In this document: positions 4,779 through 20,050 of the stretch, piece after piece
How positions within the stretch are numbered: the first letter of the stretch is position 1
Layout: the number at the start of each line of letters is the position of its first letter
NCBI GenBank assembly: GCA_008080735.1
Contig: SHMW01000025.1
Coordinates: forward strand, 12,398-47,791
Source of the DNA: Promethearchaeota archaeon
GTDB lineage: Archaea; Asgardarchaeota; Lokiarchaeia; Sigyniarchaeales; SOKP01
Direction: 5' to 3'
Length of the DNA stretch: 35,394 bases
Made by a program: the position numbers and the translations under genes
The notes under the pieces: generated by a model
Told to the model about the DNA's origin: nothing
What the model saw: the letters and a program-made list of their open reading frames with translations, nothing else
The model's database searches: none

Positions 4779-4842
4779 CTGGAAATAATTACTCAATTAT
4801 TGAGTTTTTTAACTATGGGAAGGTAGTCTAGCTTGGTATGAT

Positions 4843-4873
4843 TCTTAAAGAAATAATATCTTTATGGCATAAA
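4843..4873 (+). other. tRNA intron 1 (31 nt, BHB-type)
   Basis: Central 4-bp helix TATG(4837-40)/CATA(4868-71), 3-nt bulges ATT and AAT, intron hairpin TAAAGA/TCTTTA. Confidence 0.85.
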
Positions 4874-4906
4874 TCTTGGTTCGGAACCAAGAGACCGGGG
4901 GTTCAA

Positions 4907-4936
4907 GCTAATTTTCATTTCGAAAACGGAGAATAA
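4907..4936 (+). other. tRNA intron 2 (30 nt, relaxed BHB, in the T loop)
   Basis: Central helix GTTC(4901-04)/GAAT(4931-34), bulges AAG and AAA, internal hairpin TTTTC/GAAAA. Removal restores the TTCAAAT T loop. Confidence 0.85.
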
Positions 4937-5193
4937 ATCCCCCCTTTCCCATTATTCCTATACATATTACTAGTAAACCTTAATATCCTTTAAATTATAA
5001 TATAGTTCTTAAAAACACTAAAATATAAATAATTTTATTACCATTAAGTTGATGTAAGAACAATTCTATAGAGATTAAACAAACTTTATTTTTGAATAAG
5101 GGTTTATATGAATTGAGCGAGGTCAAACTTGCATTAAAATTATGAAGATAGTAATACAATATTACCATTTATACCGTAGCGAGCAAATAGAAC

Positions 5194-6894: not shown

Positions 6895-6953
6895 ACCTAT
6901 ACTATCAATTATAATTTTTACCGATGAGAAGAAAAGAAAATGAGATAATAAAA

Positions 6954-18293: not shown

Positions 18294-18724
18294 TTCTAAG
18301 GGGGAAATCTAATGTCAAAAAATCTCTATATCTATATTTTATTTCAATTTGCGTTTTTAATTAGAATTAGAATAGACTAATATGTTTTAAGTATTTCTAT
18401 TTTAATTTAATGATATTTGGCGATACAGAAAAATTATTATTGATATTTGACTTTCATTTTTGATGATTCAATAGTATTAGAATAATTCCACACATCTTTT
18501 TCAATTAAATGAGAAGAATAATATGAAATATTTTTTACAAATTTTTAATATTTCAGCAAATTGACACATTTTTATTAAAAAATCTAGTTCTTCTTTTCAA
18601 ACGCGTGATTTTCGGGAATTCCTTGCTAAGTTAAGCAAAAAGTTTAATAGGTTCTAATTCTTTAATAAGGTAGAATGGGCTGAATAAAAAGAAATTTTTA
18701 TTGGTCTAATTCTGTTTAAAGCAA

Positions 18725-18736
18725 TTTATATAAAAA
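18725..18736 (+). promoter_or_regulatory. Putative TATA box of the csp gene
   Basis: TTTATATAAAAA about 45-55 nt upstream of the csp ATG. Confidence 0.45.
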
Positions 18737-18779
18737 GTAATAAAACGTAAGTAAATTAAGAAGTGAAGTGTAGTAAGTA

Positions 18780-19075
18780 ATGCCCAAGGGAAAAGTCAAG
18801 TGGTTTAACAATCGTAATTTTTAAGAGATTCCCTCTTAAAGCGAAAAGGCTATGGCTTTATTACCCCTGAGGAATATGAGGACGATGAGTCTCAAGAACA
18901 CGATATTTTTGTTCACTACTCCGCTATAAAAGGAGAAGGAGATGAATATAAGACCTTATATGAAAATGACATCGTGGAATACGAAGTCACCGAAGGAGAT
19001 AAAGGCCCACAAGCGGCGAATGTTAAAGTAATTGAATCTGCCGGGAAAGAACAGTCTGGTGGATACTTTTACTAA
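18780..19075 (+). CDS. csp: Cold-shock domain protein (CspA family, 88 aa after splicing); exons 18780-18817 and 18847-19075
   Basis: Spliced product [88 protein letters not shown]. It contains RNP1 (KGYGFI), RNP2 (IFVHY) and KGPQAANV. The unspliced frame stops at TAA 18822-24. Confidence 0.9.
18818..18846 (+). other. Putative 29-nt BHB/BHL-type intron in csp mRNA
   Basis: Central helix TCGT(18812-15)/GCGA(18841-44), 3-nt bulges AAT(18816-18) and AAA(18845-47), intron stem TTTAAGAG/CTCTTAAA. Cutting after the 2nd nt of each bulge gives CGT AA|A GGC, which is in frame. Confidence 0.8.
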
Positions 19076-19270
19076 AACCCATATGAACACATATAAGCAA
19101 GGTTGTAAAGATCCTTATTCTTTATGAACCAAATAGTATATGAACGTGAATAATTTAAAGTAGAACGACTTTAAGTTTAAAATTCACATAATCTTTTTTT
19201 TATTATTTCTTCTTTTCAATATTTTGGAATCCTTAGAATTTTATATTCGTGCACTATACTTTTTATAAGA

Positions 19271-20050
19271 ATGGACTCACACTATCCCAAGGAATTAATT
19301 GCCTTAGCAAAAGAAACCAATTGGGAACGGATAAAAGAATTTATTGAACAGTTCATTCTTTCTACTCTCAAGGATGATCTACCCTATAATGTAATTTTAT
19401 TAGAGAAGAATAATAAAAATAAGAAAAAAGAAGCTGTAAAAGATTTTTCAATTCAAAATAAAAAAGATATTGCCCGTGTGAAGCAAGTTAACGGCTTTAA
19501 CACCCTTTCCATTTATCAATCGAATGAATTTATCAGTAATAATTTATATATCACCAAGAACAATGAGACAATTATTCTCATGGCAAAATTCATGGACCCT
19601 ATAAATATCAGAAATTTAGTATGTTTCGATTTTCTGATGATGATTGACAGCAGCAATACTCCCACCTTCATAAATCCATCGGGAGATACCTTGGAAAGTA
19701 ATGAGATAATTCAATTATTTAAAAACTATGGTTTTAAAAAACAACTAAAAAATATCAATGAGATTAAGGATGCAGAGTTAGAGATCTTTATCTTTGAACA
19801 AATTACAGAGAAAAATGCCATATGGGGCGGAGAAGAGACAAAAGCGTTTAAAAGCTGGAAGGACAAGATTTCGGATCTTTATCGAGAAGACACAGGAAAG
19901 TATTCATATTATGGGGGAAATGTTACGAAAAATTTTAGAAAATATTTAGAAGAGATGTATGAATTATGGAAAAGGCTGACGAATTGTGGGCAAAAACGAG
20001 TAGACGATATTCAATTGAACAGATTCTTTTCCTTTTTAAACCTTATGTAA
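19271..20050 (+). CDS. Hypothetical protein with two tandem about 24-aa C-terminal repeats
   Basis: 259-aa ORF. Repeats FEQITEKNAIWGGEETKAFKSW and YREDTGKYSYYGGNVTKNFRKY. Confidence 0.7.
   Translation: MDSHYPKELIALAKETNWERIKEFIEQFILSTLKDDLPYNVILLEKNNKNKKKEAVKDFSIQNKKDIARVKQVNGFNTLSIYQSNEFISNNLYITKNNETIILMAKFMDPINIRNLVCFDFLMMIDSSNTPTFINPSGDTLESNEIIQLFKNYGFKKQLKNINEIKDAELEIFIFEQITEKNAIWGGEETKAFKSWKDKISDLYREDTGKYSYYGGNVTKNFRKYLEEMYELWKRLTNCGQKRVDDIQLNRFFSFLNLM

Follow-up and report, generated by a model that had tools for sequence, protein, structure and literature searches.

Introduction

In eukaryotes, HAC1/XBP1 mRNA undergoes unconventional splicing by IRE1/RtcB. Among the archaea, the intron of the crenarchaeal cbf5 pre-mRNA was reportedly studied by Watanabe in 2002 and by Yoshinari in 2006. 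This intron, in the gene for pseudouridine synthase, is of the BHB type and is found in Crenarchaeota of the Desulfurococcales and Sulfolobales (Yokobori 2009; PMC2738675); the cut rule for EndA places cleavage between bulge nucleotides 2 and 3 (PMC2738675). Besides cbf5, the sole other mRNA substrate in the literature searched is the 5′ UTR of Haloferax HVO_1309, and BHB introns in coding sequence are recorded there only for crenarchaeal cbf5. An initial annotation of the DNA considered here had called archaeal mRNA introns rare.

The splicing endonucleases are not equivalent in the motifs that they accept. The relaxed HBh′ motif is cut by (αβ)2 and ε2 endonucleases only, and the Asgard EndA is of the (αβ)2 type, with broad specificity and an L1 loop (PMC5829648). 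For pre-mRNA, a 2025 paper on EndA structure cites the cbf5 work only, and an October 2026 preprint on Asgard tRNA introns (10.64898/2026.10.13.758758) has no occurrence of the term mRNA. The literature that we searched, with incomplete coverage, contains no paper joining cold-shock protein, Asgard and intron.

Here we describe a cold-shock protein (csp) gene of the CspA family in a 35,394-nucleotide stretch of DNA, referred to below as the window, from a Promethearchaeota archaeon. We consider it very likely that 29 nucleotides at positions 18818-18846, within this gene, constitute an mRNA intron of the BHB (tRNA) type that would be spliced by EndA and RtcB.

Results

A CspA-family gene interrupted by 29 nucleotides

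The gene occupies positions 18780-19075 of the + strand and is divided between KWFNNR and KGYGF by a 29-nt insert at 18818-18846. Read without splicing, it runs ATG CCC AAG GGA AAA GTC AAG TGG TTT AAC AAT CGT AAT TTT TAA, so that translation ends at the TAA stop codon at 18822-24 and gives a 14-mer. The rest of the protein (...FVHYSAI...GPQAANV...GGYFY*) is encoded in another frame, from 18848. This exon 2 frame matches the Pfam cold-shock domain PF00313 with E = 1.2e-17 over profile positions 13-65 of 66; exon 1 (KVKWFN) encodes the KWF strand, which accounts for the first 12 positions. The split, the frame shift and the 14-residue product had been described in the initial annotation, and the sequence and the profile match confirm them. 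A mechanical ORF list of the window contains no ORF spanning the cold-shock domain; the initial annotation had expected gene callers to miss the gene.

Excision of 18818-18846 gives ...AAT CGT AAA GGC TAT GGC... (N-R-K-G-Y-G) and an uninterrupted frame of 88 amino acids, colinear with intronless orthologues, which bears out the earlier statement that both exons are intact; RNP1 (KGYGFI) and RNP2 (VFVHY) are both present in this spliced product, as expected of a member of the cold-shock domain family. Exon 1 (18780..18817, + strand) comprises 12 residues and the first two bases, AA, of a Lys codon, and matches the N-terminus of the intronless orthologues (MPKGTVKWFNNRK...). Exon 2 (18847..19075, + strand), identified by the cold-shock domain match, extends from the third base of this Lys codon to ...GGYFY, with the stop codon at 19073-19075, and is 91% identical to the intact orthologue P0002. 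The predicted spliced junction is AATCGTAA joined to AGGCTATGG, and the intron boundary may be slid by up to 3 nt with the mRNA unchanged. Four uninterrupted csp paralogues in the host genome read SKKGYGF, SRKGYGF, YRKGYGF and EEKGYGF at the insert site.

The leader and start region are kept between the window gene and its orthologues, and the leader just before the ATG (aagtgta..agtaATG) is common to the intronless orthologues L006 and L007. Further upstream, a putative TATA-like A/T element, a candidate archaeal promoter, was picked out by eye at 18725..18736 of the + strand, 44-55 nt before the start codon.

Fold and geometry of the insert

The minimum-energy fold of the RNA spanning 18790-18870, calculated with ViennaRNA, has an energy of -17.2 kcal/mol and reproduces the 8-bp stem, the TCGT/GCGA helix and the exon-exon pairing claimed in the initial annotation. 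In the central helix, the exon strand UCGU (18812..18815, +) pairs with the intron strand GCGA (18841..18844, +) through three Watson-Crick pairs and one G.U pair. The intron-side outer helix is a hairpin at 18820..18840 (+) in which UUUAAGAG (18820-27) forms 8 bp with CUCUUAAA (18833-40) around the loop AUUCC, worth -6.1 kcal/mol alone. The element is closed by two exon-exon helices (18792-98 with 18853-59 and 18801-06 with 18847-52), which span 18792..18859 (+). Along the transcript, the order is exon helix strand, bulge, intron hairpin, intron helix strand, bulge, and this is the order in the published definition of the BHB motif (10.64898/2026.10.13.758758).

The two bulges can be drawn with 3 nt each on opposite strands, as had been proposed, with AAU at 18816..18818 and AAA at 18845..18847 (both +); their sizes are not those of the minimum-energy fold, in which A18847 is paired and the bulges measure 4 nt (AAUU) and 2 nt (AA). 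With the bulges placed by fold and offset, the cut rule (PMC2738675) predicts cleavage after 18817 and after 18846. It thereby removes exactly 18818-18846 and gives CGT-AAA-GGC and the 88-residue protein, in agreement with the earlier prediction. The ends of the two central-helix strands are offset by exactly the insert length, 29 nt, and cuts placed symmetrically about the helix will therefore always remove 29 nt.

The motif falls short of the full canonical form. Five unpaired bases separate the exon-side outer helix from the central helix, so that the motif is the relaxed HBh′ and not the full hBHBh′; at least one flanking helix of at least two pairs is looked for in such a motif, and it is supplied here by the 8-bp intron-side helix. 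The stability of the element is also modest: its z-score against dinucleotide shuffles is only -1.87, with 9 of 200 shuffles as stable, and this counts against the BHB reading. When the window insert itself was shuffled, a central helix with 4/4 pairs in a valid register arose in 3% of trials.

Both the 29-mer and its hairpin core occur once in the host genome at up to 5 mismatches. We therefore rejected a repeat or MITE origin, a unique insert not being a repeat element. A search of Rfam over 18500-19300 returned no relevant RNA family.

Processing enzymes and tRNA introns of the host

The host MAG amounts to 4.15 Mb in 140 contigs, with 33.6% G+C and 7% estimated contamination. It contains two genes of the EndA family (PF01974), one with the catalytic Tyr/His/Lys positions and the other with Phe for Tyr and no His, together with two RtcB genes (PF01139). 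The EndA pair fits the (αβ)2 type reported for Asgard archaea, and the host is accordingly predicted, from these family assignments, to encode both an endonuclease for relaxed motifs and an RtcB ligase.

The window also holds a tRNA-Pro(CGG) gene with two non-canonical BHB introns, at 4817..4951 (+). Intron 1 (4843-4873, +) is 31 nt long, with helix UAUG/CAUA and bulges AUU/AAU; intron 2 (4907-4936, +) is 30 nt long, with helix GUUC/GAAU and bulges AAG/AAA. On the unspliced window, ARAGORN with default settings called no tRNA; after both excisions by the same rule as above, it recognised a 76-nt tRNA-Pro. A tRNA with two BHB introns of 30 and 31 nt argues that the host processes introns of the size and shape of that in csp. 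With its intron option applied to the whole genome, ARAGORN reported 20 of 47 tRNA genes as interrupted, with unreliable boundaries, and these calls were left out of the analysis.

Covarying inserts at the same site in relatives

The initial annotation had raised the question of whether the insert position and BHB geometry are conserved, with covarying sequence, across Asgard genomes. A DNA pattern made up of degenerate KWF(N/D), 18-48 nt and GYGFI was run on 400 genomes of the phylum and gave five matches: the window, G003, another paralogue in G006, G001 and, in another genus, G261. The reversed-control pattern gave no match in the same 400 genomes. A relaxed pattern added G254, and a scan of a metagenome collection added L111 and L148. 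Among 185,579 species genomes scanned, intron-type matches occurred only in the same Promethearchaeia/Promethearchaeota MAGs. Other Asgard genomes thus do carry inserts at this csp position, and in these the geometry is conserved and the sequence covaries.

The eight csp genes so assembled have inserts of 29-31 nt at an Arg/Lys-Gly junction, and excision gives an uninterrupted Csp of 70-89 aa in all eight. Their central helices are UCGU/GCGA in the window and G003, CCGC/GCGG in G006, CCAG/CUGG in G001, and CUAG/CUAG in G261, G254 and L111. A perfect 4-bp central helix, at an offset equal to the insert length, is accordingly present in seven of the eight genes; the insert of L148 has an imperfect one, with two A.A mismatches. 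AA(U/A/C) and AAA flank this helix, and the seven introns other than that of the window have them at the places of its two bulges. The inner stems also compensate, GUUUUCG/CGAGAAC in G261 being replaced by AUCCUCG/CGAGGAU in L111. Compensatory change is therefore seen at both levels, in four central-helix variants that are all complementary and in the inner stems, in 7/8 genes. Pairing between the KWF and KGYG codons of the two exons is predicted in five of the eight.

In the three helix variants that are not palindromic, the 3′ strand of the insert reads as the reverse complement of the adjoining exon sequence and does not repeat it directly, which excludes target-site duplication as the source of the pairing. 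With shuffled inserts, the chance of such a helix was 0.005-0.044 per gene for the seven genes with a perfect helix, and the product of these chances is ~3e-8 if the four helix types are taken as independent. In MAFFT alignments of the intron regions the helices fell out of step, since the position of the BHB cut shifts by 1 nt from one gene group to another, and the table of pairs was made by scripts instead.

Most matches of the relaxed pattern were set aside as the conserved csp 5′ leader (TGGTTTTAAAATTG) or as chance, and the bacterial matches of the first pattern as a 5′ UTR, TGGTTCAATGG, followed by a normal csp. A search with full-length orthologues, in which broken genes were flagged by the query start, picked out only the window's gene among the matches listed. 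A human gut metagenome contig (L119) carries a bacterial csp with an in-frame 15-nt duplication (AEKINAEK) in the same loop, which is not an intron.

The leaders themselves merit a remark. In intronless csp genes of the family, at many loci (e.g. L173-L186), TGGTTTTAAAATTG runs into a TTG or GTG start, and TGGTTCAATGG stands at the start of many bacterial csp genes. Both repeat the UGGUU of the Trp-Phe codons, and a leader containing UGGUU could be a regulatory or Csp-binding element.

Gain and loss of the csp insert, and a second site

The nearest orthologues of the window gene, in G002 and G006, have an exon 2 that is 91% and 89% identical, respectively, and no insert, the sequence being AATCGAAAAGGC. 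The window insert is thus either recent or lost in those orthologues. Orthologues that never carry an insert had been named at the outset as an observation that would speak against an intron. This is what is seen in the closest orthologues; paralogues and more distant relatives do carry the insert, so that the pattern is one of gain and loss and not of absence.

The csp intron is present in three paralogue groups. Within the window's own group it is found in the window only. In the group characterised by GFVKWFD...KDRRF, it is found in G003, G006 and G001, and the host's own copy of this paralogue, P0005, is without it. The third group, VKGTVKWFDSRKG, is in another genus. Measured against shuffles, the similarity of the window intron has z = 4.0 to that of G003 and 3.1 to that of G006, and the latter two compare with z = 6.1. 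The likeness between the window intron and those of the paralogues implies either an old intron that was lost many times or an intron that moved between paralogues.

The KDRRF group has a second intron site, between the Lys and Trp codons, which is occupied by 30 nt in G020 (L231, G020:C71:3390-3900) and by 54 nt in G183 (L233, G183:C22:19700-20210). The helices are GUAA/UUAU and GUGA/UCAU, respectively, the bulges are AAA/AAU, and excision gives ...VKWFDYKKG.... In four more genomes of the genus of G183, matches begin at the same residue, and these genomes may share the Lys/Trp intron.

Recurrence at the site may be explained by the partial self-complementarity of the conserved KWF and KGYG codons, from which the exon share of the motif can be drawn; by the same reasoning, exon pairing of these codons would make csp a favoured landing site. 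On the sequence comparisons presented here, the predicted csp intron belongs to a set of mini-introns that are gained and lost among the csp paralogues of this archaeal family.

A second split gene

The host genome was scanned on both strands for a 4-bp helix at offsets of 14-70 nt with a closed inner hairpin and A-rich bulges. It was also required that excision join two open frames, the second without a start codon of its own. Strict filters left three loci, namely csp, one weak case and an AAA+ gene on contig C18 of the host (G000). The intron of this gene is 30 nt long and lies at 6895-6924 in + coordinates (L188:1096-1125, minus strand); it has the helix GAUU/GAUC, bulges AAU/AAA and a 9-bp hairpin, and it splits a MoxR-like AAA+ ATPase. 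Exon 1 (P0003) carries Walker A and covers AAA_5 positions 1-41, and exon 2 (P0004) covers positions 46-139. Read across the AAC junction codon, exons 1 and 2 encode ...YDTVQRL-N-DSRFG..., identical to continuous orthologues of 285-309 aa, and excision reproduces the ...YDTVQRLNDSRFG... of continuous orthologues in six or more relatives.

The orthologue in G005 (L198, G005:C10, ~139,000-139,700, minus strand) has a homologous intron at the same site and a second one inside Walker A (GEPG/TGKT), with helix CUGG/CCAG. A third insert in this gene, 31 nt at DKADIE/FPND, is less canonical and was rejected as a BHB intron, there being no 4/4 central helix at a frame-restoring offset. The AAA+ orthologue at G003:C136 also looks broken.

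Two candidates of the host scan, on C27 (35 nt) and C1 (32 nt), were discarded as adjacent genes with their own start codons, that on C1 being rpoH-rpoB, and no convincing BHB was seen at nine further loci flanked by long ORFs. Because the scan is blind to in-frame introns and to imperfect helices, two split genes in the genome is a lower bound.

State of the gene and alternative explanations

Compared with two intronless orthologues, the csp gene has pS 0.57-0.63 and pN 0.04, a pN/pS of 0.07. This ratio shows strong purifying selection in the aligned sequences as an average over the whole divergence, which is not in itself proof of selection since insertion. Some csp copies of other genomes have in-frame stops and no insert: those of G030 (G030:C30:6803-6862) and G206 (L235) have TAG for the Trp of KWF, and those of G191 (L234) and G208 (L232) have TAA inside the domain. 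These copies may be pseudogenes, sequencing errors or something else. Plain nonsense codons of this kind indicate that dead csp genes exist in the family and that decay is visible where it happens. Exon decay was looked for in the eight intron-bearing csp genes, and none was seen.

A recent 29-bp insertion might have killed the window copy, leaving a young pseudogene whose BHB-like fold is a by-product of an insertion that happened to contain a hairpin. The closest orthologues, in G002 and G006, have no insert; the four other csp paralogues of the host are intact, so that loss of this copy would be tolerable and its function could be covered; and nonsense codons do occur in csp copies of relatives. 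We nevertheless regard such an origin as improbable. It does not account for seven further csp genes with an insert at the same site and exons that are all intact, nor for the three non-palindromic variants in which the insert ends in a reverse complement of the exon and not in the direct repeat that a target-site duplication would have given. The low pN/pS ratio, the uniqueness of the insert in the genome, with no repeat element to which it could belong, and an AAA+ gene of the same design all weigh in the same direction. A fault of assembly or binning in the MAG is very improbable, even allowing for 140 contigs, 7% estimated contamination and the fact that no independent assembly of the same species was found in the collections searched, which may omit records of this genome. 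Inserts of the same design occupy the same site in independent assemblies from other projects, the AAA+ genes of G000 and G005 hold a homologous pair of introns, and complementarity of insert and exon would not arise from an artefact.

The insert could also be read through by the ribosome, either by a -1 shift on AAU UUU UAA, which would produce Csp with a 10-residue insertion, or by a bypass from CGU to the downstream CGA. A run of U followed by a stop codon is indeed found at 18818-18824, frame 2 has no stop from 18818 onward into exon 2, and a single Arg tRNA could read both CGU and CGA. What makes recoding very improbable is that the homologous inserts, of 29, 30, 31 and 54 nt, would need different and mutually incompatible events. 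In G003, a 30-nt insert with an in-frame TGA would call for stop readthrough; the 31-nt inserts would call for +2 or -1 shifts; and take-off and landing codons differ both in G001 (AGA and GGA) and at the Lys/Trp site (AAA and UAA). Neither a shared slippery site nor matched take-off and landing codons are found across the homologous inserts, whereas the single BHB rule accounts for all of them.

Discussion

We therefore favour a spliced BHB intron in the csp mRNA. In the mechanism that we propose, the four exon bases UCGU ahead of the insert would form a helix with the four intron bases GCGA ahead of the 3′ junction, the 8-bp intron hairpin would stack on one side of this helix, and the A-rich bulges, AAU and AAA, would be placed on opposite strands. 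The host's two-subunit splicing endonuclease would cut after the second nucleotide of each bulge, and RtcB would ligate the exons and close the intron into a circle. The spliced mRNA (...N-R-K-G-Y-G-F...) would direct synthesis of the 88-residue Csp, where without splicing only a 14-residue peptide would be made. The geometry, the restoration of the frame, the covariation, the enzymes and the tRNA introns of like shape are matters of observation, from which we infer the cleavage and the ligation.

It is conceivable, though in our estimation rather unlikely, that csp splicing is a regulated switch instead of constitutive housekeeping, with low temperature or free Csp setting the spliced fraction. 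The BHB would then form only when a weak, A/U-rich fold arises between the KWF and KGYG codons; low temperature would stabilise this fold, and free Csp protein would melt the RNA structure. Were this so, the Asgard archaea would have put the tRNA-splicing machinery to use in a post-transcriptional circuit for cold shock or autoregulation, a functional analogue of IRE1/RtcB splicing of HAC1/XBP1. A corollary would be that mini-introns move between paralogues and repeatedly settle where the exons supply half of the motif.

The csp case is not isolated, since it extends to three paralogue groups, two csp sites, a second split gene and up to three inserts in the AAA+ orthologue of a sister species. 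If splicing is confirmed at the RNA level, standard gene finders under-call the protein genes of these genomes, Asgard gene expression makes wider use of the tRNA-splicing machinery than has been documented, and the closest prokaryotic relatives of eukaryotes have interrupted protein genes with a protein-only splicing route. The features common to the inserts provide a search rule: an exon that pairs over 4 bp with the 3′ end of the intron, AA-rich bulges and an intron of ~30 nt.

Of the systems with which the csp intron may be compared, IRE1/RtcB splicing of HAC1/XBP1 resembles it in being non-spliceosomal, in the paired stem-loop cuts in a coding mRNA, in joining of the tRNA-ligase type and in the change of frame. 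It differs in its nuclease, IRE1, in its RNA motif and in being stress-regulated, whereas regulation of the csp intron is only proposed. The BHB introns of Asgard tRNAs share the lineage, the enzyme, the motif definition and repeated gains with the csp intron (10.64898/2026.10.13.758758; PMC5829648), but their substrates are tRNAs and not mRNA. In Haloferax volcanii, HVO_1309 is likewise an mRNA substrate of the tRNA splicing endonuclease, with a circular excised intron; there, however, the intron lies in the 5′ UTR and is independent of the reading frame, and the organism is a euryarchaeon with a different type of EndA (PMC7714728).

The cbf5 intron, too, is short and interrupts a coding sequence; its BHB is unconventional and is cut between bulge nucleotides 2 and 3, hetero-oligomeric EndA is required, and close relatives differ by gain and loss (PMC2738675). 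For cbf5, cDNA and in vitro cleavage exist; the csp intron is a prediction from sequence. The csp case differs further in its gene and in its phylum, Asgard, in the several paralogues and two sites in one small gene, and in the AAA+ gene that is also split. The predicted csp intron extends the precedent of cbf5 to another gene and to the archaeal lineage nearest to eukaryotes.
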